This document shows positions 14,394-61,580 of a stretch of DNA of 64,000 nt, one piece after another. Source of the stretch: Candidatus Micrarchaeota archaeon. GTDB taxonomy: Archaea > Micrarchaeota > Micrarchaeia > Anstonellales > Bilamarchaeaceae. The position numbers and the translations under genes are program-made. Every line of letters starts with the position of its first letter. Position 1 is the first letter of the stretch. Below the pieces are notes generated by a model that was given only the letters and a program-made list of their open reading frames with translations, did no database searches and was not told the DNA's origin. The stretch covers positions 103,314-167,313 of the forward strand of contig JBBSVO010000006.1 of the NCBI GenBank assembly GCA_038046805.1. Direction: 5' to 3'.

Positions 14394-14423
14394 TTTATTA
14401 ATATTGCGAGAGCAGATGTTTCA

Positions 14424-27828: not shown

Positions 27829-27873
27829 TGAAATTTTTAAATTTCATCAATCATGAACGATTCGTCGTTCATG
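27827..27873 (+). terminator. Two consecutive hairpins after the UPF0147 gene
   Basis: GATGAAATTT/AAATTTCATC, then TCATGAACGA-TTCG-TCGTTCATG (a UUCG-type loop). Confidence 0.5.
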
Positions 27874-35756: not shown

Positions 35757-38700
35757 ATGCGTGATTTTGAAACAACTGAAAAGATCGCAGTGCCGGAAAA
35801 GCTCATAGACCAGATCATAGGTCAAGATAAGGCAGTTGAAATAATAAAAAAAGCTGCAAAACAAAAGCGCAATGTCCTTCTCATAGGTCCGCCAGGTACA
35901 GGCAAAAGCATGCTCGCACAGGCAATGGCAGAGCTAATGCCTGCTGAAGAACTGGAGGATGTTCTTACTTATCCAAATCCAAATAATGAGAATCAGCCAC
36001 TTATCAAGGCAGTTAAAACTCATCCTTCACCAGATGAAATAGAAAAGAATAAGGAATACAAAATGCTGTTTCATCCAAAAGAGCTTTTGGATATGAAAAG
36101 AGGAACTACCGGGAAACCCATGCCTTTGATTGGTATGGGAAGAAGAATATTTCGCATGAGCCGAGCCATGGATGATCGCATGGCAGGTGGCGGTTCTAAC
36201 CTCTTCATGTTGATTCTGATTGGTATAATTCTTCTTGCAATAATTTTCTATCTTGATCTTGCAGAAAACATAAAATGGCTTCTTCTGGCGGGAATTTTCG
36301 GTATTGCATTTTTATATATCATTTCAAGTGCTACCCAGGGCTTAAGCCGCAGGTTTATGCCGACAGAAAATGCAAACCCGAAATTAATCATTGATAACAG
36401 CGAGAAATTTACTGCACCATTTATTGATGCTACGGGTGCAAAAGCCGGCGCGCTTCTCGGAGATTGTAAACACGATCCGTTGCAATGTTTTTTCCCATCA
36501 TCTACGACCTATATCGTTAAGGACGAGAAAATCCTTACAGTTGCTTTGAATGAACTTGTTGATAACTTGCTAGCAAAATACCCAGAATTAATTCAAAGAG
36601 ATGAAAAATATGAAGGGTTGATTCTCCCAAAAAACGAGGAGATTTACACTATTGGTTCATTGAACGCAAACACAATACCTGTACGTATTTTATGTGTAAA
36701 TAGAAGACTGCGCACAGGGAAGGTATCCATTGTTAAGACTGGTATCACTCGTTTATTAGTAACCCCGGAACACAAAATATTTTCCGGTGGAAATCTCATA
36801 GAAGCCGAAAAAATTAGGCCAAGTTCACAATTTTCTTTATATTTTAATCCAGTGATAACGAAGGATGACGTCATAAGGACATTTTCAGAACAAGACCAGG
36901 CAGATGCAGTTAACTATTATAAATTCGTAAAAATAAAAGAGTCAAATCCTCCTTTTGGATACAAGAAAATTGCCAAAATAATGGGGATAAAATCAGGACA
37001 GACCCGGTGGTGGAACAACAAAAAATGTAAACCAAAGGCAGTTCAGACAATAGAACGCCTTGAACATCTTGGTTTGCTTCCCTTCGGTGTTAATAATGCG
37101 GTAGCACCAATAGTTGCTAGAGTTTTAGGCACTACCTTTGGGGATGGAGGTATCTTTTCAACTCTCAATGGAATATTTTTATCTTCTTCTGAAGAAGATT
37201 CTCTTAATCAATACGCACAGGATTTAATCTCCATCTTCGGAACGTCTATAGAACATAATTTTGAGCGCCGAATCAGCGGTGTCAATAATACCGGAAGAGT
37301 TGTATGGAACACGAATCGCGATGTCGTTCGTTTCTTCATAGCTCTCGGAGCCCAGGTTGGAAGAAAGAACAAAAACGTTCGAATACCTTCGTGGATTAAT
37401 CTGAGCTCGGAAGTGCAGCAGGAATTTTTCGGAGCTTTTTTAGGGAATGAACTATGTAGTCCAAGATTCTCCAATGACCAGAACAAGATACAGTGTTTTT
37501 GTTTCGGACTTGCCGGAAGTCGTTCATTGGAACAAAATCGAAAAGAGATTTTATCTACTCTTGCCCATTATCTGAATTCTTATGGAATCCAAACCTCCCC
37601 AAACATAAATGAAAACGAATTCAAAAAAGGGAGATATATATGGAGACTGGGAATATCAACAGAAGTTGAGAACTTAATCCGATTTTACCAGCTTATTCCT
37701 ATTCGTTATTCAAATGCAAAGCTATTGAGAGTTCAGGATGCAATAGAACAGGTTTTGGAACGAAAAAAATCAAAATACAAAGACTTCCTACGCATCGGAA
37801 AGAGTGAAAAATATGTTTTGGCCACTCTTCGCGTTTCGGGAAACACACTTCAAAAGATTATTTCGAATGAAAAGTTGGTTTTTGATTCTTCATCTGTGCA
37901 ATTTTCCGGTTATGTCTATAACATAACAACCGAGTCTGGCAATCTTTTCGCAAATGGAATCCTTGCAAGCAATTCGGGAGGTCTCGGCACCCCCCCTCAT
38001 CTCCGTGTCGAATCAGGCGCAGTCCACCGTGCGAACAAAGGGGTTCTTTTCATTGACGAAATCGCATCTCTTAAATGGCACTGGCAGCAGGAACTTCTGA
38101 CTGCAATGCAGGAAAAGAAATATCCAATAACCGGGCAGAGTGAAATGAGCTCCGGAGCTCTTGTTAAAACAGAATCCGTTCCTAGCGATTTTGTTCTAGT
38201 TGCTGCAGGAAATTTACCTGATCTTCAACAGATTCATCCAGCGCTTCGTTCGCGTATAAGAGGTGCCGGCTATGAAGTTTATGTTGAAGACAGCATGGAC
38301 GATACTCCTGAAAATGAAGACGGGCTTATTCAGTTTATAGCTCAGGAGGTCAAGAAAGACGGGAGGATCCCCCACTTTAATCGGGATGCAGTTATTGAAA
38401 TCATTGAGGAAGCGCGGCGCATGTCTGGTCGAAAAAAGAAATTCACCCTGAATCTAAGAGAGCTCGGTGGACTTGTACGTGCCACCGGAGATATTGCGCG
38501 TGAGCGGGGCTCCCGGTTTGTCGAACGCGAACACGTGGCTCTTGCAAAAAAGGTTTTCAGTTCTATAGAAGGCCAGCTCGGAAAGAAATTCGTAGAGCGA
38601 AAAAAGGATTATGAAACATTCATGCATGAGGGTTCTGCAGTTGGAAGGGTAAATGGCCTTGCAGTGCTCGGAGAATCCTCTTCTGGTCTTGTTCTTCCAA

Positions 38701-39254
38701 TTGTTGCTGAAGTTACGCCTGCTTCATCAAAAAGCGAGGGAAAGGTTTTTGCAACAGGAAAGCTTGGAACAATTGCCAAAGAAGCAGTTGAAAACGTTTC
38801 GGCTATCGTAAAAAAGACAATGGGAACGGATATATCAAAAAGCGATATTCACATACAATTCCTTCAAACATACGAGGGCGTGGAAGGAGACAGTGCTTCC
38901 ATTTCCATCGCAGTTTCGGTAATCTCCGCGATGACAGGAATTCCAGTAAAGCAGGATTATGCTCTTACTGGTTCTGTCGACGTACGTGGGGATGTTCTTC
39001 CTGTTGGTGGTGTCACGGCAAAGACCGAGGCCGCAATAGAAACAGGCCTCAAATATGTGCTGGTTCCGAAAATGAATTTTGAGGATATCATTCTTTCGCC
39101 GGATAAAAAAGGAAAAGCAGAAATAATTCCGGTTGCGAATATAATGGAGGTTCTCAGGCATGTTCTTGTTGATTGTCCAGAGAAGGTGAAACTGCTTGAA
39201 TCGATGAAAGCTGGTGGAAACGTCAAATCAAAACAAGGAAAGAAGAGAAGATGA
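35757..39254 (+). CDS. lonB: Archaeal membrane-anchored Lon protease (LonB), interrupted by an intein
   Basis: 1165 aa. Walker A GPPGTGKS, two TM helices, AAA+ Walker B VLFIDEI after the insert, and a C-terminal protease domain with Ser in GDSASISIAVS. The exteins sum to 669 aa, a normal LonB size. Confidence 0.9.
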   Translation: MRDFETTEKIAVPEKLIDQIIGQDKAVEIIKKAAKQKRNVLLIGPPGTGKSMLAQAMAELMPAEELEDVLTYPNPNNENQPLIKAVKTHPSPDEIEKNKEYKMLFHPKELLDMKRGTTGKPMPLIGMGRRIFRMSRAMDDRMAGGGSNLFMLILIGIILLAIIFYLDLAENIKWLLLAGIFGIAFLYIISSATQGLSRRFMPTENANPKLIIDNSEKFTAPFIDATGAKAGALLGDCKHDPLQCFFPSSTTYIVKDEKILTVALNELVDNLLAKYPELIQRDEKYEGLILPKNEEIYTIGSLNANTIPVRILCVNRRLRTGKVSIVKTGITRLLVTPEHKIFSGGNLIEAEKIRPSSQFSLYFNPVITKDDVIRTFSEQDQADAVNYYKFVKIKESNPPFGYKKIAKIMGIKSGQTRWWNNKKCKPKAVQTIERLEHLGLLPFGVNNAVAPIVARVLGTTFGDGGIFSTLNGIFLSSSEEDSLNQYAQDLISIFGTSIEHNFERRISGVNNTGRVVWNTNRDVVRFFIALGAQVGRKNKNVRIPSWINLSSEVQQEFFGAFLGNELCSPRFSNDQNKIQCFCFGLAGSRSLEQNRKEILSTLAHYLNSYGIQTSPNINENEFKKGRYIWRLGISTEVENLIRFYQLIPIRYSNAKLLRVQDAIEQVLERKKSKYKDFLRIGKSEKYVLATLRVSGNTLQKIISNEKLVFDSSSVQFSGYVYNITTESGNLFANGILASNSGGLGTPPHLRVESGAVHRANKGVLFIDEIASLKWHWQQELLTAMQEKKYPITGQSEMSSGALVKTESVPSDFVLVAAGNLPDLQQIHPALRSRIRGAGYEVYVEDSMDDTPENEDGLIQFIAQEVKKDGRIPHFNRDAVIEIIEEARRMSGRKKKFTLNLRELGGLVRATGDIARERGSRFVEREHVALAKKVFSSIEGQLGKKFVERKKDYETFMHEGSAVGRVNGLAVLGESSSGLVLPIVAEVTPASSKSEGKVFATGKLGTIAKEAVENVSAIVKKTMGTDISKSDIHIQFLQTYEGVEGDSASISIAVSVISAMTGIPVKQDYALTGSVDVRGDVLPVGGVTAKTEAAIETGLKYVLVPKMNFEDIILSPDKKGKAEIIPVANIMEVLRHVLVDCPEKVKLLESMKAGGNVKSKQGKKRR
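36486..37973 (+). mobile_element. Intein (496 aa) with LAGLIDADG homing-endonuclease domain in LonB
   Basis: The insert begins with Cys (DPLQ|CFFPSS) and ends ...NGILASN|S, the canonical C1 ... HN/SN+Ser junctions. Internal LAGLIDADG-like blocks VLGTTFGDGG and FFGAFLGNE. Confidence 0.85.
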
Positions 39255-41266: not shown

Positions 41267-42351
41267 ATGCCCGAACCGTGGTTTCCCTTGCCAATGGCAC
41301 TTGCCCCGCCAAAGGAGAAAACCGAAAAAACAGGTTCGACAATGCCGTTGCCAGTTTTTGCATTGGAGCTGCTGGAAACAGACAAATTGAAAATGAAGCT
41401 CGGTCTGGACAGGGCGTATTCCGCCTTTGAAAACCTGCGTGGTCTTTACAAAGGAATGCTTGCCGGAGAAAAAAGTGGCGAAACGGGAACGCTTGGCATA
41501 AAATACTTCTTAAACAACGGTATCACAAAATCCCAGTCTGAGGTTTTGGCGACAAGAAAAGGAGACTGCGACGAAATAACGCGGCTGGCATTTCTTTCTG
41601 CCTCCGGACTGGGAGTGCAAAACGCAGTCATGGTTGAGATGACCTGGATAAATCCAAAGACAAAACAGTTTGAGGGGCATTCCGCGCTGGTTCTGAAGCC
41701 TGAGAATCCGTTGGATGCCCCCATAGTTTTTGATTTTACATATCTGCATGATGGAAAACCGCTGGAATCGGCAAATCTTGAAAAAGGGCTGAGAACGCTT
41801 TACGCAGAAGATGCGAAGAACCCTGATTTTAAGATGGCGCAGTTTGGCACTGTTGCGGAAGTGGAAGCGTCGTATTACGACAAGGTCGGATGGCATTATT
41901 CCACCGTAGGGAATTGGGAAATGACCGCGCTGGCTTATGAAAGGGCGGTGAGCCTTGTACCAGATAGCTTTGAGTATACTAAGGATTTGGCTTTGCGTAT
42001 AAGAAATTGAAGAAATACGAGAAGGCATTGGATGCGTATAAACGCGCTTTAGAAACAGTGGACGGAAAGTTGGATCTGCAAGTGCATGCTAACGCAGGTG
42101 AGATGGCACTAAGACTCGACAGACATGATGAAGCAATAGATTCATTGAAGACAGCACTTTCTATTAGTACTGATGTACAACTTGATATAAAAATAAGAGG
42201 AAATCTTGCAAGTGCGCTGTTTGGTAAAGGATTAATGGCCAACAATGAAAAAAGATATGAAGAAGCCCTCAAACTGTTTAGAGAAGCATTACTATATGAA
42301 CCAGACGATAAGGATATACTAAAAGCGATTAGAAGATTAGAAACAAAATAA
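41267..42351 (+). pseudogene. Transglutaminase-like cysteine-protease domain fused to TPR repeats, frame broken once near 41980
   Basis: RKGDCDEITRLAF core in the first ORF. The second frame is open from 41983 and reads GFGFAYKKLKKYEKALDAYKRALE, a TPR that continues the TPR started in frame 1. This is either a genuine frameshift or an assembly error. Confidence 0.55.
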
Positions 42352-42360
42352 AGAAAATAA

Positions 42361-42735
42361 TTATCGTATATTTGGACGCGGTTTGAGTTCGGTAGTGGTC
42401 TCGATGGGTACAAATCCGACTGTACCGTCTGGATCAAGTTTCATTAAATTTCCACTTTCTTTACTAGTAAATAGTATTGATCCATCTTTCTCTCTTTCTA
42501 TTATTTTACCTTCAGCCAAAAGATCTCCGTCTCTAAAAAATATTTTTATATTCCCATCTCTTCGTTCTAACAGGACTACCCCATTAGCATACGTAATCTG
42601 TGATTTCGTAGGCACCGAACTTTTCGCATCAGCCATAATTCCTTCTCGCGTTGAAGATTTAAAATCAGTTGGCTTGACGGGGGAACAGGATAGGGCGAAC
42701 GCAGTGATTGAAGCACCAACAATCAATCTTCTCAT
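42361..42735 (-). CDS. Small secreted/lipoprotein-like protein
   Basis: 124 aa. N-terminus MRRLIVGASITAFALSC has a signal peptide with a lipobox-like ALSC. Confidence 0.55.
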   Translation of the reverse strand: MRRLIVGASITAFALSCSPVKPTDFKSSTREGIMADAKSSVPTKSQITYANGVVLLERRDGNIKIFFRDGDLLAEGKIIEREKDGSILFTSKESGNLMKLDPDGTVGFVPIETTTELKPRPNIR

Positions 42736-42848
42736 GTTGTAACTTTAGTCAAAAAAGGATATAAACCTATCATTATGACTATCCTACTCGGAGACTAATA
42801 TAAGACTCAAGACGCTAAGCCCGAAACAGGCTGTGAACTGGAAACCGT

Positions 42849-43703
42849 TTACTTGCACGCATGCGTTTTCTCGTCACAGACTTCACCGGACGCACAATCT
42901 TTGTCAAATGTGCATGAGCCTATCTTTGCATCACACATGTGCTGCTTTGTATTACAAACCTGCCATATTCCGCAATCCTTGTCGCTGCTGCACATTCCTT
43001 TATTGGGAGTGCATACATGCTTTTTCTTTTCGCAGTATTCCCACGCAGAGCAGTCATTGTCCATCGCGCAATTTCCCTGGGTTGCAACGCACTTGTTTGT
43101 TTCCGGGTTGCATCTTGCCCATTTCTCACAGTCTCCATCGCCTATACAAAATTCTTTCTTTGCAAGGCAGAAGTTCGTCTTGACATCACATGTCTGCCAT
43201 GTTTCGCAGTCTCCGTCAAAATTACATCTTCCTGTATTCGCTTCACACTTTCTGCTTAATTCATCACAGCTTTCCCAGCCCTTGCAATCATAATCTGTGC
43301 TGCACAATCCAGGTCTCATGGAACATTTGTGGGTTTTCTGGTCGCATACCTCGTATGTTTTATCACATGCCTCATCGCTTGTGCAGAATCCCGCCTTTGG
43401 AACGCATGCATTATCCGCAATAGAACAAACCTGCCATTTCTCGCAATTTGCATCTCCTTTGCATTTGTTTGCCTTGAAGTCGCAGGTATGCGTCTTACTG
43501 TTACACGTTAGTAATGGGTCGTTACATTCTTCTTCCTTTTCACAATAACCCTGTTTCAACACGCAGGATTTTTTCTCAAGGTCACATTTCTGCCAGTCTT
43601 TGCAGTCCTTGTCCTTACTACACCCGCTACCTCCTATGCATCCCGCACCGAGAAAGCTCAATCCACCCAATACAATCAGCAAAAGTATAATGCGCTTGTC
43701 CAT
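42849..43703 (-). CDS. Cysteine-rich repeat lipoprotein (10 x ~26-aa C-x5-C-x5-C-x6-C units)
   Basis: Start set at the ATG at 43703 (MDKRIILLLIVLGGLSFLGAGC, signal plus lipobox). Ten tandem units such as CSTDYDCKGWESCDELSRKCEANTGR. Confidence 0.75.
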   Translation of the reverse strand: MDKRIILLLIVLGGLSFLGAGCIGGSGCSKDKDCKDWQKCDLEKKSCVLKQGYCEKEEECNDPLLTCNSKTHTCDFKANKCKGDANCEKWQVCSIADNACVPKAGFCTSDEACDKTYEVCDQKTHKCSMRPGLCSTDYDCKGWESCDELSRKCEANTGRCNFDGDCETWQTCDVKTNFCLAKKEFCIGDGDCEKWARCNPETNKCVATQGNCAMDNDCSAWEYCEKKKHVCTPNKGMCSSDKDCGIWQVCNTKQHMCDAKIGSCTFDKDCASGEVCDEKTHACK

Positions 43704-43843
43704 GGGGATGTAGTACTTACGAAGGTAATTAAAATTTAGCTTTTTCTTCGCGGTCTTGCGTCTCGCGTCACGTGTCCCGTATTTTGGGTCTTCTTTCAAT
43801 AAAAAAGGAAACGTGCGGAACAAGAAAAACAAAAACCGGAAAC

Positions 43844-44527: not shown

Positions 44528-44599
44528 GTTATTCCATTCTGATAATCGTCAGATAGCTTTAAAAATGGTTTTAGACACAGTTTATGGTTGGGTGTGATT

Positions 44600-47500
44600 A
44601 TGCCAAATCCGAAACAGATCGTATTGCACGTTAATTCCGGGAAATCTTCGCTTGTGGATATGCATGAATGGATGAGGGCCACTATAAAGAAAGATACAAC
44701 TGATGAGCAATTGAATATACCGGCGACCAAACCAGACGTTTATGATTCGGTTTTTATTGGTTTTATCTATAAGAATCCAAGGGATAATGACGAGATTTGG
44801 GCAAGAGTTTATACTCCGATTTATGATAAGAAGAATGCGTTCACAGGTAATTTTCTTGTAACAGAAGCCCGGCTTTCTGATTTGATTGGTGACAAAAAGA
44901 AAATAGATGCAATAGAAGGGGCCATATTGAATCTTCCCAGTCGTTCAATTGGCGAATTTCGCATGTTGAAGGAGCTGGTATCTCCTCAGCATTCTCTTAA
45001 TGATGACGGGTATGATTCTGGTACGGGCTATAGATTTAGTTACGGGAAAAGTGTGGGACGTGACAAAATAGTTTTCCCAATGGGCCGTGAGCTTAAGCAC
45101 GTTAACGTAGCTGCACAAGAGCCTGTGGATGTCACCGTATCCCGAGCCGGTGTAGCCGCCCCAATCTCTCGAATAGCATTCGATGGCGAGATGTGGACTG
45201 CAAAAAAAGCAGTTAAGGAAATAATTGAAGCTCCCGCAACCGATTTGAGCAAAGTAAATCCAAATGACCAGATTGGGTTTGGCAAGTGGCTGAATGGGCA
45301 GATGAAAGAAAAATTCAGTAATTTTGATTTTTCCAAATTATCCAAGGATGACCAAAAGGAATTGGTGAAGCATGTTTCGAATCTTATTTCGAATAGACTG
45401 CTTGCCAGTCTTGCAAAAGCAGAACCGCCCGCTGCAACAGAAAGACCGCCAGCCACAACCGCGCAGGCGCCTGCTGAAAAACCCAAGAGGGAATTATCCG
45501 AGCGTGAACTTGATAATTTGCTTGATGAATTGGAAGCCCCGGATGCGCTCAAAAAAGCTATTCCAAAACCGAGCGGTTCACCACGAATTGCAGAAAATGT
45601 TGAACTTGCCAGACGCGAGAGCGCTGCCAAAGAGGCGCGTCTCTCCAAAGTAAGCGAACCGGTGCAAGCCCCAGTGTTTCCAACCGAACAGGAATTAAAC
45701 GCAGATATTCGCCAATTTGTCAATTCTTTAGACAGTACAAATCTGGCAACATGGGGTGAAGCAAGCGATGTTGTTGACCATATTCTGGAACAGCGGAAAA
45801 TCACAGTTCCATTGAATTTCGCGCTCAGGGAAGGACTTGAATTATATGCATCGAACGAAATCACGGCTCACACGCAGGACGTGTCACCAGCGGTTATGTA
45901 TGAGTTAGAAGACCTCAAAAACGAAGTAACGAAAGTCGTGAATCGGGTGAAGTTTGACAAGTCCGGCCAGGGTGCAAGCCCGTCCAAAGTAATTAACGAA
46001 GTTTTGCGTCAAAAGAATCTAGGAAAAGATTTTGTTTCCCAGAACGATATGAAAGAACTTTCCAGTTTTGCCGCAAGCGAGCTTGTGCGCAGGCTTAATG
46101 AGGTTGTTGTCACTACAACGAATCCAGAGAGGCTGAAGCCGGAAGTTATGAACTTGATTAAAGGAGACTTACAAATGTTTATTTCAACAGGTAACTATTC
46201 CGAGATTTCTGGTGCTACTCCTGATTCGGTTGTAAGGCTCATTCTCACAAGAAGCATGCGACATCTGGTTAAAACGACTGGTGGCATTACCGGAGCGGAT
46301 ATAAAAGAACTCGAAACATATGTGCAACCCCAGTTAATCGCACGCAGAGCTGAACTCGTTAAGCTGGCCGCAGAAGCACAGTCCCGTTCTCGCGCAGAGA
46401 TCGCTCCAGCTGTCTCAACATCAAGAACGGAATCGAGTCTTCCTCCAACTATTCCCCCATCGGAAGTTTCCGCTCAAAGAGAGGCAGAACGACAACGACA
46501 ATTAGCAGCCGAAGCAGAGAGGAGAAGAACACTGGCACCACCAACTCCCGCACCAGCCGCACCAATAGTTGCGCCAGCAGTTTCCACCCCCATCGTTTCA
46601 TTATCCCGCAAAGCAGTTTCAGTTCAGGATGTCGCCAAATCATTCACCGGAAGCTATACTCCCGGGCAATTGATTGAATTGAACCGCACTTTTGCAGAAG
46701 CGCCGGAAGCGCGGAAATACACATCTGCATATCACGTCGTCTATCAAAAACAAAGCGATGACGGCAGCATGCTTCTTTTCGTAAAGGCGCACGGAGGCGC
46801 ACGGATTTACAGGTATGATATTCCTGCAGGGTTTTTTGATCCATCTTCGGTAACGATTTCGAGTGCGGTTCTACAAAATCTAAAATCTGCAGGTGCATCT
46901 AATTCAGAGGCAGATGCGATTGCGATGATAATGACGAAGTCATTTGTTTCCAACATAGTTACTGGGGAAGTCCAGTCTTTTGTTTATGCCAATGGCGGCA
47001 TGAGCAACACGAATTATCTTTCACTTGGCAAGTCACGCGATGAATATCGTATTCCCAAAGGAACAAGATTCTCAAGGCTTATTACGCCACTTGATTTTGT
47101 AAAGGACTTTTCAGCAGAAGATAAACGAAAATACCTTGCAGAGCCCACAGAGAATCCAGACGATTATGAAGTTCTTGGTACAATGATTGCCGGAACCCGC
47201 GCCATGATTTTTAAAGAGCATAAATCCGCGATGGAATCTGCAATCTCCTCGTACTTAGAAGGTAATCCAGAACCGTTTGCAAAATTGCTTCTTTCCTATG
47301 CAATGGAAGGTCAGGCCACTTCAGCAGTACATATACAGGTTCTTTCGGTTTACTTAATGTACAGGCTTCAGCAGGAAGGACTGATGGATTTCACCGGAAT
47401 CTACGCGAAATTAAACGGAAAGACGATAAAGCCGTTAAAGGATGCGGAAGATATTCTGAAAAGAGCAAGAACCAAATCCGGCGCGCAGGAAGTTTTCGCA

Positions 47501-48433
47501 ATTCTTCAGGAATGGGAGAACAGAAAAGTAATGGGGCTTGGAAAAGAAGGTGCAGTTTCAAAGCTCACGGAAATCCTGAATTACGCAAATGAAAATTTCA
47601 TGGCAGAAAAGCCGCCGAAAGGGTACAGCAGGAGCGGAAAGATTTACCCATACCTAAAGAGCCGTGCAACAAAGAAGGTTGCATCGGAAGTTAATCCGGT
47701 TGATGGAAAGCTCGGGCCGATTACGCTTATGGCATGGATGTTCGTGATGACCGAACCATCTCTGGCAAGGGGGCCGGATAAGGACCCAAGAAAGAATCGC
47801 TTGGAAGCCGAACCTCTCCATGTCGCAGATGTAGCGGTTTTTAAGGAAAAGAGAGATGTAACTACCAAACGAGGGGAAGGATCAACTTATGAATTGAATC
47901 TCCATTTCTTCTCTAAAGGAGGCGATAAGCTTACCGAAGCAGCATATCTCAAATCCCAGGGCCTTACTCGCGATCAAGCACTTTTTATGTATTATGGGCT
48001 GATGCTTGCACGTGATACGATCCCAGGTACAGATGGAAATATGGGTTGGTTCATCATTAATCCGAATAGGAAGGAAAGGCAGGATAAAAATATATTCTAC
48101 ACTGGCTTTTTGGATATGGACCGTGGCAAAATATTCCCAGTAACCTATGAGAAGGATACAGCAATTATTGGGGATAGCCCTATACTTGAAAATGTTCAAT
48201 TTATGACACACATTGATAAAGACAAAAAAGAGATCCACCCCTGGGTTGTTCCTGAAAAACAACCTTGGGAAATGGATCCAGCAGTTGTAAGTAGGTTGTA
48301 TTCTGTCCAGTCAAATAACAACACATTTTTCCTTCCCAATTACGGAACACCATCAAGACCAGATAAAAACGGAAATATTTACCCGGGTTCGTTTATTATT
48401 GGGAATGGTACGATAAAAGATTTGACGAAGTGA
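44600..48433 (+). CDS. Giant ORFan protein (1277 aa from the ATG), no signal peptide
   Basis: Uninterrupted ORF with internal ~65-75-aa helical repeats and Pro/Ala-rich spacers (PPAATERPPATTAQAPAEKP; APPTPAPAAPIVAPAV). No catalytic motif recognised. Confidence 0.7.
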   Translation: MPNPKQIVLHVNSGKSSLVDMHEWMRATIKKDTTDEQLNIPATKPDVYDSVFIGFIYKNPRDNDEIWARVYTPIYDKKNAFTGNFLVTEARLSDLIGDKKKIDAIEGAILNLPSRSIGEFRMLKELVSPQHSLNDDGYDSGTGYRFSYGKSVGRDKIVFPMGRELKHVNVAAQEPVDVTVSRAGVAAPISRIAFDGEMWTAKKAVKEIIEAPATDLSKVNPNDQIGFGKWLNGQMKEKFSNFDFSKLSKDDQKELVKHVSNLISNRLLASLAKAEPPAATERPPATTAQAPAEKPKRELSERELDNLLDELEAPDALKKAIPKPSGSPRIAENVELARRESAAKEARLSKVSEPVQAPVFPTEQELNADIRQFVNSLDSTNLATWGEASDVVDHILEQRKITVPLNFALREGLELYASNEITAHTQDVSPAVMYELEDLKNEVTKVVNRVKFDKSGQGASPSKVINEVLRQKNLGKDFVSQNDMKELSSFAASELVRRLNEVVVTTTNPERLKPEVMNLIKGDLQMFISTGNYSEISGATPDSVVRLILTRSMRHLVKTTGGITGADIKELETYVQPQLIARRAELVKLAAEAQSRSRAEIAPAVSTSRTESSLPPTIPPSEVSAQREAERQRQLAAEAERRRTLAPPTPAPAAPIVAPAVSTPIVSLSRKAVSVQDVAKSFTGSYTPGQLIELNRTFAEAPEARKYTSAYHVVYQKQSDDGSMLLFVKAHGGARIYRYDIPAGFFDPSSVTISSAVLQNLKSAGASNSEADAIAMIMTKSFVSNIVTGEVQSFVYANGGMSNTNYLSLGKSRDEYRIPKGTRFSRLITPLDFVKDFSAEDKRKYLAEPTENPDDYEVLGTMIAGTRAMIFKEHKSAMESAISSYLEGNPEPFAKLLLSYAMEGQATSAVHIQVLSVYLMYRLQQEGLMDFTGIYAKLNGKTIKPLKDAEDILKRARTKSGAQEVFAILQEWENRKVMGLGKEGAVSKLTEILNYANENFMAEKPPKGYSRSGKIYPYLKSRATKKVASEVNPVDGKLGPITLMAWMFVMTEPSLARGPDKDPRKNRLEAEPLHVADVAVFKEKRDVTTKRGEGSTYELNLHFFSKGGDKLTEAAYLKSQGLTRDQALFMYYGLMLARDTIPGTDGNMGWFIINPNRKERQDKNIFYTGFLDMDRGKIFPVTYEKDTAIIGDSPILENVQFMTHIDKDKKEIHPWVVPEKQPWEMDPAVVSRLYSVQSNNNTFFLPNYGTPSRPDKNGNIYPGSFIIGNGTIKDLTK

Positions 48434-48437
48434 TACT

Positions 48438-50075
48438 ATGCCTGAACCAAAATTTAAACAAAGAGATGATCTTGCTTCTGTACAGTTAGAGTTGGCGAAT
48501 GCGTTAAGGCCACTTCTGGAATACAAATCTCTTTCTGCCAGGGAGCTTGGAAGACAGCTTACTATCCTTAGCGAAGTTGTTAAGCGCATGTCCACTTCAG
48601 GTAACCTTGATGAGAACAGTGCGAGTTTCATTGGAAAGACATTACGTCCGATTATAAGCGATTCAAACGTCAGTGAAAATACCCGTGCATATGCACGGTC
48701 TATTTTAATTCCGCTTTCCAGGCCAACACCTGCTGGTGCAAGGGAAGGCGCTGCGGCTGCAGGAGGAGTGGTTAGCGAACTTGATCCATATCGTTACTCT
48801 CTTTTGACCGGGACAGATGCAGCTGCTCAATTTGGAAGAGATTTAGAAAAGATACTCCATTATGAACCAATTATTCAGGGTGCAATAAAACCAACTACTG
48901 ATAAGGGAACCTCATTTACTTTGGCTCCAATCGTTCCTGCAGAGCTTGGAGGGTATTTTGGTTATAATCTGATTAGCGACAAAGGAGACATCGAGACCGC
49001 ACAAAAACTTAGTAATGCTGTTTTAAGGGTTCAAGCCGGACTCGCCGGTCCACGAGAGACTGTGTGGCTGGCAAATCAATTCGCCGGGTCAGATCAGCTA
49101 AAAAAAGAACTTGGGGCAGATACCTTTTCTAAATTTGTTTCTGAACTCAAAAAAGGAAATGTTGATGAGGCGATGAAACTGCTTCCAGAAGGCAATGCAA
49201 TGAAACAATATCTTGGTAAGGTAAAAGAACAAGGCGTTTCTATCGAGGAAAGGTCGGATCGCGAGAGCATTACCTTATATCGTTGGGGCGCAGGAATAAT
49301 CCTCAAATTTGATGAGCAGGAGTACAAACTTTGGCGCAAATTAAATACCCGTACAGAGAGCAATCCTCTTTATGTTGTTATTTTGGCAGTAGGTGTTGGT
49401 TATTCAGATTCAATGTTAAAGTACAATATGGTGAAGACTGAGAGAAGGCCTGGAAAAGAGCCGGTAGTCACCACTACAAAAAAGTCAAAAGAACTGACAG
49501 ACGCATGGTATGAAAAGGGAACACTGGATGTTGCTGGTGCGGTTGGAGTCGGAGCCGTAGCTTCAGTCCTTAAGGTTCATGTGGATGCATATGAGCAGTC
49601 TATTTCCATTACACCTCTCGCACAGTATACTGCTGGTGGTGCGGGTCTTATCGGAGTTCCTTATTTGTTAGACTTTAGGGAAATTAAATTTAAGCGTGGA
49701 ACTACCGGAGAAAAGGATTTTTGGGACATTGAATTAAGAGGGGGTAAAGAGCTAGGGCCAGTTGGAAAAGTTCCGCTGGCAAGGTTACTTTCAGTTGATC
49801 TCGAAGCTGGCTGGGGGATGCTTCAGAACGGAATTGACGGAAAAGTTACTTTATTGGCACGCCCGGGAGAGAGAGTCTGTATTTCCATTTCAGGCAAATT
49901 GGGCAGAGACGATATACGAAAATCTTTCTATGGTGGCGCTGCAGGAGTAAGATTTCCAATCTATGGGCCGTTTGAGGGAGAATTAAGCGGTTTTGTAACT
50001 CAATTTCCATCACCCAAATCCAAAAATCCGTATCTTGAAGCTGGTGGCTGGGCTAACTTAGTTGTTCGTTTCTAA
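48438..50075 (+). CDS. ORFan protein (545 aa) with beta-strand-rich C-terminal half ending in Phe
   Basis: Starts 4 nt after the stop of the giant gene. The C-terminal ~270 aa show alternating hydrophobic/Gly-rich segments and end ...YLEAGGWANLVVRF. Confidence 0.7.
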   Translation: MPEPKFKQRDDLASVQLELANALRPLLEYKSLSARELGRQLTILSEVVKRMSTSGNLDENSASFIGKTLRPIISDSNVSENTRAYARSILIPLSRPTPAGAREGAAAAGGVVSELDPYRYSLLTGTDAAAQFGRDLEKILHYEPIIQGAIKPTTDKGTSFTLAPIVPAELGGYFGYNLISDKGDIETAQKLSNAVLRVQAGLAGPRETVWLANQFAGSDQLKKELGADTFSKFVSELKKGNVDEAMKLLPEGNAMKQYLGKVKEQGVSIEERSDRESITLYRWGAGIILKFDEQEYKLWRKLNTRTESNPLYVVILAVGVGYSDSMLKYNMVKTERRPGKEPVVTTTKKSKELTDAWYEKGTLDVAGAVGVGAVASVLKVHVDAYEQSISITPLAQYTAGGAGLIGVPYLLDFREIKFKRGTTGEKDFWDIELRGGKELGPVGKVPLARLLSVDLEAGWGMLQNGIDGKVTLLARPGERVCISISGKLGRDDIRKSFYGGAAGVRFPIYGPFEGELSGFVTQFPSPKSKNPYLEAGGWANLVVRF

Positions 50076-50111
50076 GGGCGCAAATCCGAGTGTTCAATCA
50101 ACTGACAATAT

Positions 50112-50135
50112 TCATGAACGGTTCGCCGTTCATGA
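50112..50135 (+). terminator. UUCG-loop hairpin after the 545-aa gene
   Basis: TCATGAACGG-TTCG-CCGTTCATGA, followed by a second hairpin GAGACAG.../...TTGTCTC. Confidence 0.5.
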
Positions 50136-50183
50136 CATCGATTGAGACAGGATAACATTCTTGTCTCAGGATAACTGATCTAT

Positions 50184-53100
50184 ATGGTTTCATATGTCGC
50201 TGGAACGTGGCGCTTCGTTCTACCTCTACTGCTACTTATTGCCTTTTTTCCCCTCAGCTCTTTTGGCGTAGATAAGACTTATTCCTCTTATACTTTCTAT
50301 AATTCTCCAGGAGTAACTGATGTTTATCTGAAAACAGATATAGGTATTTCCAACAATGTCGAGGTTACGTCATTAGGCCTTCAGCTCCCATCTGGAGAAT
50401 ATTGTCCTGGGAAATTTTATGTTTCACCAAAGGTAAATATAAACTGGCCGAAAGACAAATCCAATTTTTATGTGGTTTCATATTATCCTCTTGGTAATAC
50501 CGAATCCTGTTGGCCGCTTACTGGTTCGAGTAGTAAAACCCAATGTCCTTATCTCCCAATTTCGTACAGTACTATAAACGAGAATAAAAATGCGGAATTT
50601 TTAAGCGATTCATCTTACGCGAGTGTTTTGTCTCTTGGTTTTTATCTTTCTTCATCATCAAATGTTTTGACGGATTTCTATGACCAAAAAATTGCAAAAT
50701 ACTTTGTTGAGGCAACAACAGGAAAGATATATGAAAACAAAAAAGGCGGAGTCAATCTCTTCTGCAAAGGCGCGTCATCAATTGTTGTTGATGGCGCCAC
50801 GATGACGACACAGTCTTTGGCCAGTACTTCATCGCAGAGCATTGCACTTGGAGAAGGGGCTCACTCTGTCTCATCCAAATTATCTGGTCTTGAATGTGTC
50901 GGTGCAGTAAAAAAGTATCCGGATGATGATAAATTTTTCAGAGTATATCTGTTTAAAGAGAATCCATGGGTTCCGAGTTTGAGTGACACCACTGCGTCAC
51001 TGTCGGTAACTGTTCTAAATACGCAATTTTCCGCAACAGCTACAAAATCCTATCCAACTACTTCAAATATTCTTATTTCGCCAGGGGGGACAACCAATGT
51101 ATATATCCTGGTTAAAAATACGGGCGATGTTCCAGTAAAGGCATCAAGCATAATGCTTGGTGCGTCGAGCCCTGGTTTTACTATTGGTCCAGGACCTGTC
51201 AGTGCGGTAAATCCGTTCAATCCATTCGGTTCTCCAATCCAGAACAGCTATAACAAGGAAATCGCCCCGGGTGAGGAGGGAACAGTTATCCTAACAATTA
51301 CTGCGCCAAATACGATTCCAGATAATGCAAAAGTTAATTTCAAACTCAAGGTTTCTGCAACTGAAAAAACCTGCGTTGGAAAAGATACCTACGAAACAGT
51401 TGACTTGTCATTTGACTATCAGATAACCCCGTTGAATCAGGCGGATAACTGCAAATTCGATCCTACTTCAAAAACAATAAACAAGGATGCAACGGATTAT
51501 TTCACTCTTTCCTGTACTGATCAAAACAATGCTCCCATTGCATGTCCGAAAGACATTTCCGTGACTGCTGATCCAAGCGATATTGTAAGCCTTTTATTAT
51601 ACGAGCCGACAACCGGAACAACCATTGTAAAAGCTCTTGATTCCGGAAGCGGTGCCGTTGTCGCAATAAATTCATTCCCGTTCTTCATCTGTTATGCTAA
51701 TGTTACTGTGCCCAAGGTTGATGTTCCTCCGCCACAGAAAAAGAAAGACTGCGTGCTTGCACCATCCACCCAAACAATAAACGGAACAGGAAATTCCGCG
51801 GAATACACTCTCACGTGTCTTCAGGATGCAGTTGCAGTTCCATGTCCGAACAGCAACGAAATTACAGTCACTACAAGCAGTCTTGTTTCTTTTGACAGCT
51901 ATTCCAAATTAGGTTCTGGTCAGGCAAAAATACAGGTTACTTCCAAATCAGAAGGCAGCGGTTCAATCGCAGTAAGCGACAAAAAAGGAATGGTTTGCAG
52001 TGCAGATGTTGTTGTTGAAAAGCCAACTCAGCCTCCTCCACCCGTAGAGCCTGTAAAGACCTGTGCAATTTCTCCTTCACCCCAGACAGTTGAGGGCCTT
52101 GGAAAAAACATGGAATTCACAATGCTTTGTTATTCTGACGGAAATCCGACTTTGTGCGAATCTACTGCATCTGCAGCAGGCCTTACGGTTACAAATGGCG
52201 TTGGAACAATCAGTAGCTATTCTGTTAAAGGAAAATCATCCACACTTATCAATGTCACAAGTACTGCGCTTGGAAATGGAAAGCTTCAGGTTTCAACAAG
52301 CAAATCAGGGCCCCCATTGTGCGAGGCAGACATTACTGTAAAATCTCCGCCAACACCTCCGCCAAATCAAACTCCTACAGTTTATTCCTGCGATGTTACT
52401 CCGGATAATCCTCTTGTAACTCAGAACAAACCACAGACATTTTTAGTAGAATGCTTCAACAACAGCAAATCAATTCCATGCACTGATGTTTCCTGGGGAG
52501 CCGTACCTGCTCTTGAAGCAAAGGCAAATCTGTTACTCAATAATATGGCTATTTTCACTATTTCCGGGCAACCAGGAACTCTTGGTGCCGTATCCGCGCT
52601 TCCATTTAATCAGGCAACAATCTGTTCCACAAACGTGGTTATAGCCGCAGAGGTGCCACCTCCACCGGCAAACGAGACGCCGGTAACGCCACAAATTGAT
52701 TCCTGTGCAATTTCCCCGGATTCCCAATCAATAGAAGGCCAAGGCGTTTATACATCCTATTCGCTTGTGTGTTATGCAAACAAAACAGTTACTACCTGTC
52801 CTGAATTTTCCGGCATGGGTATTTCCATTCCTAATGGTGTTGGTTCTGTAGAGAAATATGAGGTATCAAAGCAAATTGCAACTATTGATGTCCTCACCCA
52901 ATCATTTGGTATAGGAACCCTTTCGGTTTCATCAAAGAATAAATCTTTTTCATGCAGTGCCGCACTTGAAGTTACTGAACCAGCACAACCAACAGTGCGG
53001 AACACGTGTGCAATCGCTCCGTCCGGGGTTACCGTTACCCAAAACGCGTCCACTAGTTTCTCTGTTGCGTGCATGACAAATTTTGCACCTGCGCCCTGTT

Positions 53101-54128
53101 TTAATATAACCTGGACCGCAAGGAGCATCGATGCCAAACTAATCTCCTTTGGTCACCAATTTGCGATATTTAATTTCACTTCTCCACCGGGAACTTTGGG
53201 CGAGGTTGATGTAAATTGGAACAATGATGCACTATGTACTGCCGCGGTTCTCGTGGATACGCCCGTGCTTCCACCAGGAAACTTAACCAACCTCACAAAC
53301 CTAACCAACCTAACTAATTTGACTAATTTAACCAACTTGACAAATCTAACCAACCTTACGAACTTAACCAACCTCACAAACCTAACCAATCTGACTAATC
53401 TAACCAACTTGACAAACCTAACCAATCTTACCAATATTACTAACCTGACTAACATAACCAACGGAACCACGGGGTTCAGGGAATTTTGCAGGATTACCGC
53501 ACCGTTTTTGGTTGTGCCTAACGTCAGTTTTGACATGGATTTGAATTGTTACGATGAAATCGGGCTTCCGGTATCATGCGACAATGTTGCATGGGGCACA
53601 AGCCTTCCAGGCGGTCTTTATGTGTGGGATGCACAGGAGGACCGCGGTGCGTTAATGACTGTAAATTACGGGGGCAACATTACCTTTTCAGTATCCGCGG
53701 ATGTAAACAAGTTGTTTCCGTATTCATGTTCCGCGAACATTACTCTTGTCGGTTCAGGTGCAAACATAACCAATCTGACAAATCTTACAAACGCAACCGA
53801 ATTCTTTGAAGCATGCGCCTTGAAGCCATATTTCTGGCTTGCAAAACCAGGTGAGCAACGCGATTTTGACCTGTCATGTATTTTGGATATTAAGAATGGA
53901 ACAACTGAGGACTGCTCTAATGTAAACTGGGATGTTTCAACAACTGATTTCAGCATTACCGAGCACGCCATCAATGAGTCAAAGGCGATAGTTACATCCG
54001 CTCCGCTCGTTGGAGGAAACTACACGACAATCCTTTCAGTTACCGCAACCGGAACAAAAACAGGGAAGAAATACAAATGCACTGCGGACCTGATGCTTGG
54101 CGGAATGTTCTGCCATGATTACGTTTAA
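50184..54128 (+). CDS. Secreted giant surface protein: signal peptide, CARDB-like region, eight 4-Cys Ig-like modules, poly-sequon linker
   Basis: 1314 aa. N-terminal WRFVLPLLLLIAFFPLSSFG signal. Eight ~90-aa modules each with four conserved Cys, joined by Pro-rich linkers. Many N-x-S/T sites. Confidence 0.8.
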   Translation: MVSYVAGTWRFVLPLLLLIAFFPLSSFGVDKTYSSYTFYNSPGVTDVYLKTDIGISNNVEVTSLGLQLPSGEYCPGKFYVSPKVNINWPKDKSNFYVVSYYPLGNTESCWPLTGSSSKTQCPYLPISYSTINENKNAEFLSDSSYASVLSLGFYLSSSSNVLTDFYDQKIAKYFVEATTGKIYENKKGGVNLFCKGASSIVVDGATMTTQSLASTSSQSIALGEGAHSVSSKLSGLECVGAVKKYPDDDKFFRVYLFKENPWVPSLSDTTASLSVTVLNTQFSATATKSYPTTSNILISPGGTTNVYILVKNTGDVPVKASSIMLGASSPGFTIGPGPVSAVNPFNPFGSPIQNSYNKEIAPGEEGTVILTITAPNTIPDNAKVNFKLKVSATEKTCVGKDTYETVDLSFDYQITPLNQADNCKFDPTSKTINKDATDYFTLSCTDQNNAPIACPKDISVTADPSDIVSLLLYEPTTGTTIVKALDSGSGAVVAINSFPFFICYANVTVPKVDVPPPQKKKDCVLAPSTQTINGTGNSAEYTLTCLQDAVAVPCPNSNEITVTTSSLVSFDSYSKLGSGQAKIQVTSKSEGSGSIAVSDKKGMVCSADVVVEKPTQPPPPVEPVKTCAISPSPQTVEGLGKNMEFTMLCYSDGNPTLCESTASAAGLTVTNGVGTISSYSVKGKSSTLINVTSTALGNGKLQVSTSKSGPPLCEADITVKSPPTPPPNQTPTVYSCDVTPDNPLVTQNKPQTFLVECFNNSKSIPCTDVSWGAVPALEAKANLLLNNMAIFTISGQPGTLGAVSALPFNQATICSTNVVIAAEVPPPPANETPVTPQIDSCAISPDSQSIEGQGVYTSYSLVCYANKTVTTCPEFSGMGISIPNGVGSVEKYEVSKQIATIDVLTQSFGIGTLSVSSKNKSFSCSAALEVTEPAQPTVRNTCAIAPSGVTVTQNASTSFSVACMTNFAPAPCFNITWTARSIDAKLISFGHQFAIFNFTSPPGTLGEVDVNWNNDALCTAAVLVDTPVLPPGNLTNLTNLTNLTNLTNLTNLTNLTNLTNLTNLTNLTNLTNLTNLTNLTNLTNITNLTNITNGTTGFREFCRITAPFLVVPNVSFDMDLNCYDEIGLPVSCDNVAWGTSLPGGLYVWDAQEDRGALMTVNYGGNITFSVSADVNKLFPYSCSANITLVGSGANITNLTNLTNATEFFEACALKPYFWLAKPGEQRDFDLSCILDIKNGTTEDCSNVNWDVSTTDFSITEHAINESKAIVTSAPLVGGNYTTILSVTATGTKTGKKYKCTADLMLGGMFCHDYV
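53280..53468 (+). repeat. 21 tandem 9-bp codon-triplet repeats encoding N-X-T sequons
   Basis: (AAY YTN ACN) x17, then NIT, NLT, NIT, NGT. Sequons 1-3 and 10-12 are nucleotide-identical, indicating an 81-bp higher-order duplication. A 4-sequon run lies at 53763-53798. Confidence 0.95.
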
Positions 54129-61264: not shown

Positions 61265-61388
61265 TGCAGGGATAGCAAAGCCTGGTCAAATGCGCAGGAC
61301 TTAAGGAGCCTTTTGACTTCTAAGTAGGTCTGTGGTTTCGGAAATCCTGTCGCTTAGTGCGTTCGCAAGTTCAAATCTTGCTCCCTGC
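61265..61388 (+). tRNA. tRNA-Leu (TAA) with canonical 37/38 intron (38 nt)
   Basis: GCAGGGA-TA-GCA...TGC-G-CAGGA-CTTAAG[61305-61342]A-TCCTG, variable arm, then GCAAG-TTCAAAT-CTTGC-TCCCTGC-A. Anticodon at 61301-61303. Mature length 86 nt. Confidence 0.85.
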
Positions 61389-61580
61389 ATTTTGTTTTCA
61401 TCTGAGTTCTTCGGGTTTTTCGTGAGGAAATACCTCATGAACTACCTTCCGTCAGTGAAGGTTCTGACGTAAGATCTATTTAAGCCCTGGCCTGAGGCGA
61501 GTTAGACGATTGCCTAATTAATAGTAGTCCAACGAGTCATGGTGCTTATTTTTAAATCCTTTGAACACTAATATACTTCA

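Follow-up and report, generated by a model that had tools for sequence, protein, structure and literature searches.

The window analysed here, a 64,000-nucleotide (nt) stretch of a Candidatus Micrarchaeota genome (assembly GCA_038046805.1, contig JBBSVO010000006.1, positions 103,314 to 167,313), contains three very large genes in a row, g1, g2 and g3, and relative to the closest known locus a single block running from the end of the first gene into the beginning of the third has been replaced. I propose that this triad is a lineage-specific, diversifying module for cell-surface recognition or attachment. The proposal is a tentative one, in which belief falls a little short of doubt, and it rests on sequence comparison and predicted structure. 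The original prediction, drawn from the letters alone, was of an attachment apparatus consisting of a cytoplasmic scaffold, a membrane-inserting component and a glycosylated adhesin. Its three-gene unit and its adhesin-like surface protein have held up; the roles it gave to g1 and g2 are conjectural. The list of open reading frames confirms three plus-strand frames at 44600-54128 (1277, 545 and 1314 amino acids), and together with RNA folding it bears out the predicted sizes, the common strand, the gaps of 4 and 108 nt and the hairpins in the larger gap.

44600..48433, plus strand: g1, 1277 amino acids from the ATG at 44600, in a frame that opens at TTG 44588
48438..50075, plus strand: g2, 545 amino acids
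50184..54128, plus strand: g3, 1314 amino acids, a predicted secreted, Cys-rich, sequon-rich, modular surface protein
47750..51100, plus strand: hypervariable block (g1 tail, g2, spacer and g3 head), replaced as a unit relative to locus L012

The block is seen most sharply against L012, the closest relative. There the proteins encoded on either side match their window counterparts at 96% (DUF373), 95% (beta-CASP), 83% (HAD) and 78% (DUF302) identity and the DNA of the flanks matches at 83-87%, while window positions 47754-51171 have no nucleotide similarity. The proteins tell the same story. g1 is 40-98% identical up to residue 1050 (98% at residues 1001-1050) and about 18% identical thereafter. 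g2 is essentially unrecognisable (E = 4e-4 over 36 residues). g3 is about 30% identical at residues 1-300, about 63% at residues 301-450 and about 90% from residue 451 on. In other words, some 3.4 kb of uninterrupted sequence has been swapped, relative to L012, for an allele that is highly divergent. In the more distant L005, the triad is 28-31% identical and the flanks 45-68%. Exchange of a block between near-identical genomes is a pattern typical of specificity-determining surface systems. Since the g1 tail, g2 and the g3 head have been replaced jointly, they are probably matched parts that act together, most simply through mutual contact, and the pattern suggests that the interface amongst them is diversifying under selection.

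There are good grounds to regard the triad as one transcription unit. An element TTTA[TA]AAAT-GTTTT lies 34-43 nt upstream of g1 in the window and in L012, L005, L008 and L014, followed by a GGTG Shine-Dalgarno site, and this conserved arrangement of TATA box and GGTG is found only upstream of g1. The start codon of g2 (48438) comes 4 nt after the TGA stop of g1 (48431-48433), a spacing from which translational coupling of g2 to g1 is predicted. In relatives, g2 and g3 are separated by 4-21 nt or overlap by 4 nt, with GGTG-like sites, and gaps of 4-21 nt leave no room for a promoter. Those short gaps, the fusion of g1 to g2 in one relative and the confinement of the TATA and Shine-Dalgarno elements to the region before g1 argue strongly that the triad is co-transcribed as a single operon.

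44558..44566, plus strand: TATA-box-like element TTTAAAAAT, putative operon promoter, 34-42 nt upstream of the g1 start codon
44590..44597, plus strand: Shine-Dalgarno-like GGGTGTGA, directly upstream of the g1 ATG, its GGTG kept in relatives
50076..50183, plus strand: structured g2-g3 spacer of 108 nt with two hairpins, in this lineage only
50112..50135, no strand assigned: hairpin 1, a perfect 24-nt palindrome TCATGAACGGTTCGCCGTTCATGA, with a second copy at 27851-27873
50143..50168, plus strand: hairpin 2 of the spacer, with a 10-bp stem

The spacer peculiar to this lineage folds as RNA at -36.7 kcal/mol (z = -3.9; none of 200 shuffles equals it) and offers g3 no Shine-Dalgarno site. Its palindrome, TCATGAACG[G/A]TTCG[C/T]CGTTCATG, occurs twice in the window (27851-27873 and 50112-50135), where shuffled sequences lead one to expect no matches. 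The arms of the two copies have changed jointly (G:C to A:T) so as to preserve pairing, and each copy stands about 70 nt upstream of an ATG: that of the PolD small-subunit (DP1-like) gene at 27923 and that of g3 at 50184. The palindrome may serve as an operator common to both sites, or it may act as an RNA hairpin.

The unit is found well beyond this one genome. Word-indexed searches with all three proteins returned self or nothing. When phmmer was run exhaustively against 1.84 billion representative proteins, a query made of g1(1-200), g1(700-1277) and g2(130-545) gave 14 matches, and with 3 fragments of the window's own g1 and g2 set aside, 11 relatives are left. The term ORFan, originally applied to the three genes, is strictly wrong. 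Among the relatives, P0008 and P0015-P0019 are g1-like, P0011-P0013 and P0020 are g2-like, and P0014 (from L011) is a single 974-residue protein in which the g1 core is fused to g2. The named homologs all come from metagenome-assembled genomes (MAGs) of Micrarchaeota or of 'ainarchaeum' (probably Iainarchaeum). The same order of three genes is present in at least 10 other Micrarchaeota/Iainarchaeota lineages, being kept in L005/L020, L008, L009, L011 (fused), L012/L016/L026, L013/L019, L014 and L021. Sizes, in amino acids, are as follows.

L005: 643, 536 and 1019
L008: 1011, 552 and 840
L009: 673, 537 and at least 584, the contig ending inside g3
L011: a fusion of 974, then 845
L012: 1523, 523 and 1316
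L013: a partial g1, 534 and at least 647
L014: 985, 477 and at least 335

The third genes of these loci are homologous to g3 (E = 1e-100 to 5e-7), and all carry a signal peptide and the conserved C-terminus, with a number of immunoglobulin (Ig)-like domains in the stalk that varies between lineages. The setting recurs too: an HAD gene lies upstream in L005, L009 and L012 as it does in the window, beta-CASP likewise follows downstream in L005 and L012, and distant relatives have the neighbourhood HAD ... beta-CASP, FeS_assembly_P, ACT in common with the window. Alignments of g2 and of the g1 core contain no stretch conserved enough for scanning further loci, and only the g3-head motif KGGVNLFCKG served; with it, scans of GTDB genomes and JGI metagenomes added 12 loci, L015-L026. 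Three hidden Markov models (HMMs), one for each family, recover all three genes in each main-clade locus for which DNA upstream is available. The genes were thus rightly predicted to be a real unit, their order and tight spacing being kept in the loci of relatives. Of the two outcomes that would have spoken against the original prediction, dispersal in relatives and a match to some known family, neither was found: the triad is syntenic wherever upstream DNA exists, and no characterised match turned up.

In a divergent clade (L015, L022 and L023/24, from marine and other samples) the layout recurs: proteins of about 1200-1370 and about 650 residues come before a g3-like one of about 710, and next to it lies beta-CASP, encoded on the opposite strand. 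By profile-profile comparison the middle gene resembles g2 (probability 76%, E = 2e-5); the first resembles g1 weakly (probability 18%). These first proteins (L015 2786-6634, L024 250-4353, L022 70-3639) have long N-terminal segments of Tat/Sec-like character, marked by RR or R-F-F, by a stretch of mild hydrophobicity and by an A-x-A site, as no g1 protein of the window clade has. If they are true relatives of g1, they argue against a g1 that is purely cytoplasmic, such as the scaffold of the original prediction. The signals hint that triad proteins can act outside the cell, perhaps with g2 carried along as a partner.

Two observations on individual loci belong here. P0002 (ENA, in the g1 cluster) is a strain variant of 1320 residues that reads from g1 into the first 30 residues of g2, either through an assembly frameshift or as a natural g1-g2 fusion like that of L011. 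In L008 a gene with a weak match to Peptidase_A24 (prepilin peptidase) directly follows the triad (14216-15064); none was seen at the other loci.

g3 has 39 cysteines and 42 N-x-S/T sequons, and it reads as an exported protein with head, stalk and a terminal Cys loop.

50184..50267, plus strand: signal peptide, residues 1-28, from a hydrophobicity scan; present in all homologs
50268..51443, plus strand: head, residues 29-420, the part best conserved across lineages (KGGVNLFCKG, invariant Cys)
51444..53270, plus strand: Ig-like repeats 1-6, about 95 residues each, with four invariant Cys and Pro-rich linkers
53280..53468, plus strand: (N-L/I-T)n sequon array, about 21 consecutive N-glycosylation sequons in varied codons
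53481..54113, plus strand: Ig-like repeats 7-8, from the repeat alignment
54078..54125, plus strand: conserved C-terminus C-x(9-10)-C-x-x-[FY]-[VI]-COOH, with no transmembrane anchor

The head includes a segment like CARDB/DUF1573 (the DUF1573 match, in the L005 homolog, is weak, E = 0.042), and residues 1-300 are the part swapped relative to L012. The eight repeats occupy residues 421-1029 and 1100-1310, interrupted by the sequon array, whose DNA has a 9-nt period (20 copies, 70% matches). An AF2 model of the repeat, for which the repeats served as each other's alignment, is all-beta and Ig-like, with a predicted local distance difference test score (pLDDT) of 93.4. Its best matches in Foldseek are the Ig-like domains of the surface-layer (S-layer) proteins SbsC and EA1 (E = 2.7e-4 to 1.3e-3, template-modelling score 0.63-0.75), with others to filamin, titin and the C-terminal Ig domain of the phage lambda tail-tube protein gpV. 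At the level of sequence there is little to go on: hmmscan of g3 against Pfam finds no family at E <= 1, including no Big_1/2/3 or S-layer HMM, and the repeat profile against PDB sequences reaches a best E of only 0.22. An archaeosortase-type anchor (PGF-CTERM and similar) was sought and not found, there being no C-terminal transmembrane helix; the protein ends in ...CTADLMLGGMFCHDYV, and it has no hydrophobic 19-mer besides the N-terminal signal and a marginal one at residue 491. From its signals g3 is predicted to be exported by Sec, disulfide-bonded and N-glycosylated, and the same window encodes an AglB oligosaccharyltransferase-like core domain. Signal peptide, sequons, well modelled Ig-like repeats and AglB-like gene together give good support to the exported, modular, glycosylated, adhesin-like protein that the original prediction saw.

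The first two proteins are of another kind. g1 has no signal peptide, as predicted and as a hydrophobicity scan agrees, no transmembrane-like segment and no cysteine. Its N-terminal two-thirds are variable and differ between lineages, ankyrin repeats being inserted there in L012; only the C-terminal part of about 410 residues is conserved across the family.

45395..45499, plus strand: Pro/Ala-rich spacer 1, residues 266-300
46490..46609, plus strand: Pro/Ala-rich spacer 2, residues 631-670
47201..47749, plus strand: conserved helical core, residues 868-1050, with motifs ILQxWxN and NPVDGxLGPxTL
47750..48430, plus strand: C-terminal tail, residues 1051-1277, a Pro-rich linker and beta domain (WFIINP...FLPNYG), which opens the hypervariable block

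The notion of repeated helical modules divided by Pro/Ala-rich spacers survives in part. The two spacers are there, as is a 17-residue motif at residues 483 and 567 (with a looser copy near 251), but self-BLAST of g1 finds no significant internal repeat. The helical core is modelled with a pLDDT of 80-90 at residues 868-977. A PG_binding_1-like domain (PF01471) was considered for it, because the conserved NPVDGxLGPxTL presumably resembles the DGxxGxxT three-helix bundle of PG_binding_1, and was rejected when no Pfam match to PG_binding_1 was obtained; the sole related signal is PG_binding_3 in P0016 (E = 0.005 over 15 residues). The beta domain of the tail has the family consensus YYG...WF[IV]VNP...Y.AYYD...PWE...F.[FI]PNYG, and the tail type of the window is common to L005, L008, L009, L011 and L013. 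Within a genome g1 and g2 begin alike (MPNPKQ/MPEPKFKQ in the window, MGKQAQKQ/MGEKQKEK in L009, MGGSSL/MGGSLA in L015), which may be chance or a shared N-terminal signal.

g2 has one cysteine and neither signal peptide nor transmembrane-like segment, and no hydrophobic N-terminus is found in it or in its homologs. It is Gly-rich, and as modelled by AF2 it consists of a helical half (residues 1-267) and a meander of about 14 beta strands (residues 268-545), just as a beta-rich C-terminal half had been predicted. The protein ends in ...WANLVVRF. Outer-membrane barrels carry an aromatic 'beta-signal' residue at the C-terminus; of 8 g2 homologs, 5 finish with F and the rest with L or with acidic extensions. 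The beta half is antiparallel, with a pLDDT of 50-83 and strands of 23-25 residues in its first hairpin. Membrane insertion, also predicted, has neither a significant match to a membrane barrel nor an export signal in its favour. The weak top Foldseek matches of the g1-core/g2 model are to generic barrels, GFP and OMPLA (E >= 0.2, probability <= 0.57). When PDB sequences were searched with profiles made from g2, from the g1 core and from the head of g3, nothing emerged beyond a single TPR-like hairpin in g2 (E = 0.007).

It would be natural to ask whether g1 and g2 are enzymes. The alignment of g2 contains no invariant catalytic-type column (D, E, H, C or S). In g1 the invariant residues of that type are the D of NPVDG in the core and one D in the tail, and in the tail only P1155 and D1172 (P288 and D305 of the aligned segment) are invariant at all. 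With none in g2 and so few in the g1 tail, the alignments favour non-enzymatic, structural or binding roles.

Put together, these features suggest the following picture. Conserved order, tight spacing, a single promoter and the fusion in L011 point to a single functional unit in which the products of g1 and g2 bind each other. An operon restricted to Micrarchaeota and Iainarchaeota would encode a fast-diversifying surface module for recognition or attachment. g3 would be exported and glycosylated, a head of about 400 residues borne on an Ig-like stalk with a Cys-loop C-terminus. g1 and g2 would be made together and most likely form a complex through the C-terminal tail of g1. As a block, the tail of g1, g2 and the head of g3 would then likely set which partner (host) cell surface is bound. 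Gene structure, conservation, synteny, the Ig fold, the export and glycosylation signals in g3 and the hypervariable block are what the analysis shows; joint transcription, contact among the three proteins and the role in attachment are deduced from these.

Several results weigh against this picture. In the window clade neither g1 nor g2 has a recognisable export signal or transmembrane segment, while the g3 head that they are supposed to match would be extracellular. g3 itself has no membrane anchor by which it could be attached to the cell. The joint replacement could represent a single recombination tract anchored in the conserved flanks, with no physical interaction behind it. For g1(868-1277) joined to g2, AF2 gives a model of moderate quality (mean pLDDT 59, predicted template-modelling score 0.33). 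It is confident in the helical core of g1, in two helical stretches of g2 and in portions of the g2 beta half; the last 90 or so residues of the g1 tail were poorly covered, and that part of the model is uninformative. Foldseek with the g1-core/g2 model gives no significant match in PDB and none in BFVD at E <= 0.001.

An alternative view is that the triad builds the envelope: g3 a structural wall protein or S-layer-associated glycoprotein, g1 and g2 its assembly or anchoring factors, and the rapid evolution a matter of general surface-protein drift or virus pressure. I think it unlikely, though by no means idle. The Ig-like repeats do resemble the S-layer domains of SbsC and EA1, the sequon-rich g3 reads as heavily glycosylated, the genes hold a conserved core-genome position beside housekeeping genes, and Micrarchaeota do carry S-layers (bioRxiv 10.1101/2021.04.28.441871). 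But g3 has neither PF05123 nor the low-sulfur composition of SLP_Mh, the S-layer protein described in that phylum. Homologs, moreover, are detectable in only a subset of Micrarchaeota (the 14 matches in 1.84 billion proteins, 3 of them self fragments), and a sharp swap of one block between near-identical genomes looks more like the switching of specificity than like drift.

That same swap invites comparison with polymorphic toxins, in which case g1 would carry a variable effector tail, g2 would be the cognate immunity protein or translocator, and g3 would aid delivery or serve as receptor. Identity does break directly after a conserved ...LGPITLMAWMFVMTE, and tail and next gene are replaced jointly. 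The closest relative has variable N-terminal modules, ankyrin repeats among them, and in the divergent clade the N-terminus of the first protein looks like a signal. One would, however, expect something toxic in the tails, and Pfam finds no toxin, nuclease, peptidase or deaminase domain in any of them, while PADLOC is empty. The invariants of the tail are a P and a D. A tail type that persists at 25-30% identity across distant lineages is unlike the fold-level diversity of toxin tails, and g2, conserved and 477-552 residues long, is far larger than typical immunity proteins. The variable block reaches into the g3 head, and the window clade has no N-terminal secretion or trafficking domain. The idea seems to me distinctly unlikely.

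A bolder version of the recognition module would make g2 an archaeal beta-barrel or pore that docks, with the g1 tail, on the g3 head to form a trans-envelope or cell-to-cell conduit, its host specificity set by the block. I regard it as speculative and give it small credence. If it were true, it would be a beta-barrel-based cell-to-cell device, used to latch on to a host and exchange material with it, and categorically new for archaea.

That the triad is left over from a virus or mobile element that once integrated, its genes encoding capsid, tail or receptor-binding proteins, is very improbable. Large, fast-evolving, unannotated genes might suggest it, as might the HNH endonuclease gene 3.4 kb upstream and the resemblance of the g3 repeats to the gpV C-terminal domain. 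However, there is no PHROG match below E = 0.05, tblastn against 50,697 phage records finds nothing, and BFVD offers no matching fold at E <= 0.001. The guanine-plus-cytosine (GC) content of the triad is that of its surroundings, neither tRNA nor integrase was found at its borders, and distant relatives have the same chromosomal neighbourhood. Lack of viral similarity and conservation of chromosomal context come close to refuting the viral remnant, and searches of PHROGs, of phages by tblastn, of BFVD and of PADLOC give no support to prophage or defence-system readings. Finally, three unrelated genes adjacent by chance, for which one might cite the structured 108-nt spacer before g3 and its want of a Shine-Dalgarno site, is an idea ruled out by synteny, as order and spacing recur in at least 10 lineages, g1 and g2 have fused and the central block varies jointly.

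To return to the recognition or attachment module, what would it mean? Little is known of the means by which Micrarchaeota and other DPANN archaea recognise their hosts and keep hold of them, and candidate genes are very few. The original prediction that the DNA belongs to a small, symbiont-type archaeon was correct, since the MAG is that of a Candidatus Micrarchaeota and thus DPANN, and the triad offers a concrete candidate locus for host recognition or attachment in this group. Judged by the searches described, g3 adds a new member to the surface proteins with Ig repeats, a broad class, and g1 and g2 are families without detectable relatives outside this archaeal group: two uncharacterised families worth structural work, one of them with an unusual signal-less beta meander. 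None of the three proteins has a significant match in Pfam, NCBIfam, PHROGs, PADLOC or PDB sequences, and literature searches found no description of the triad.

g1 is known to NCBI as MEK6979361.1, listed as hypothetical in a Candidatus Micrarchaeota MAG, and is present in Hainich groundwater assemblies; the source groundwater is that of Hainich H52 (samples ERZ1292622, ERR3858128, SRR32696698), and three other samples contain the whole 9.5 kb without a difference. The DNA of the window is chromosomal, with neighbours that include both PolD subunits, an intein-containing LonB, DUF373, FtsZ, Cdc6 and Rad50, besides the AglB-like protein, beta-CASP and the HAD hydrolase. Some of its other contents deserve mention. 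Between the HNH endonuclease and a Cys-rich gene lie two genes (41267-42742) for proteins of 247 residues, without a family match, and 114 residues, TPR-like; the pair is absent at the equivalent place in L012, a small indel beside the HNH gene. The Cys-rich gene itself (42849-43832, minus strand), two genes upstream of the triad, encodes a protein that matches DUF5885 (E = 7e-13), is 93% identical in L012 and may be another surface protein. The LonB protease gene (35757-39254, 1165 amino acids) has an intein with a LAGLIDADG-like domain inside the AAA+ module; with homologs of 839 residues in L012 and 664 in L008, intein content evidently differs among close relatives. A tRNA with a span of 124 nt (61266-61389), recognised by Rfam at 45.9 bits and overlooked by ARAGORN, is probably an archaeal one with an intron.

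How does the triad compare with systems already known? The beta half of g2 calls to mind outer-membrane beta-barrels (OMP_b-brl, two-partner secretion, intimin-type), being Gly-rich, with some 14 amphipathic antiparallel strands, and adjoining an Ig-repeat protein that looks like a passenger. Yet g2 lacks a signal peptide and has a helical N-terminal half of 267 residues, its Foldseek probability against OMPLA is 0.15, and OMP_b-brl_2 of Pfam appears in one homolog only, at E = 0.06. Archaea are not known to have an outer membrane or BAM machinery.

The likeness to CdiA-CT/CdiI and Rhs-CT/immunity pairs lies in a g1 tail that changes abruptly after a conserved segment and in a downstream gene that is replaced with it. 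The triad differs from them in having no secretion or toxin domain, a large conserved g2, few tail types and a block that enters a third gene.

The S-layer protein of Micrarchaeota, SLP_Mh (Micr_00292), is large, secreted and N-glycosylated, without a clear anchor, and has a PF05123 N-terminal domain and almost no sulfur residues (10.1101/2021.04.28.441871). g3 shares with it the phylum, large size, predicted secretion and want of a clear anchor, and its 42 sequons predict N-glycosylation. With 39 Cys, however, and no PF05123 in it or in six homologs, g3 is ruled out as an S-layer protein of the SLP_Mh type.

In myxobacteria, TraA and TraB recognise kin by means of a surface receptor with a polymorphic distal domain on a Cys-rich repeat stalk and a partner gene beside it, and swaps of alleles set the specificity of recognition. 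g1-g3 have no sequence relationship to TraA/TraB, and domain, envelope and partners all differ. The only match in the window to a TraA-type Cys-rich repeat is in the gene at 42849-43832 (E = 2e-4, far below the curated cut-off).

Nearest in build are the Ig-repeat surface proteins (Big_2-type intimin and invasin; SbsC and EA1), which like g3 have a signal peptide, a stalk of Ig folds (about 95 residues each in g3) and a head. g3 departs from them in matching no Big or S-layer HMM of Pfam, in the four invariant Cys of each repeat, in lacking a beta-barrel or transmembrane anchor on the same chain, in its Cys-loop C-terminus ending in [FY][VI], and in the two partner genes that always precede it. 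A secreted, disulfide-stabilised, glycosylated stalk that bears a variable head is the classic build of adhesins and recognition proteins.

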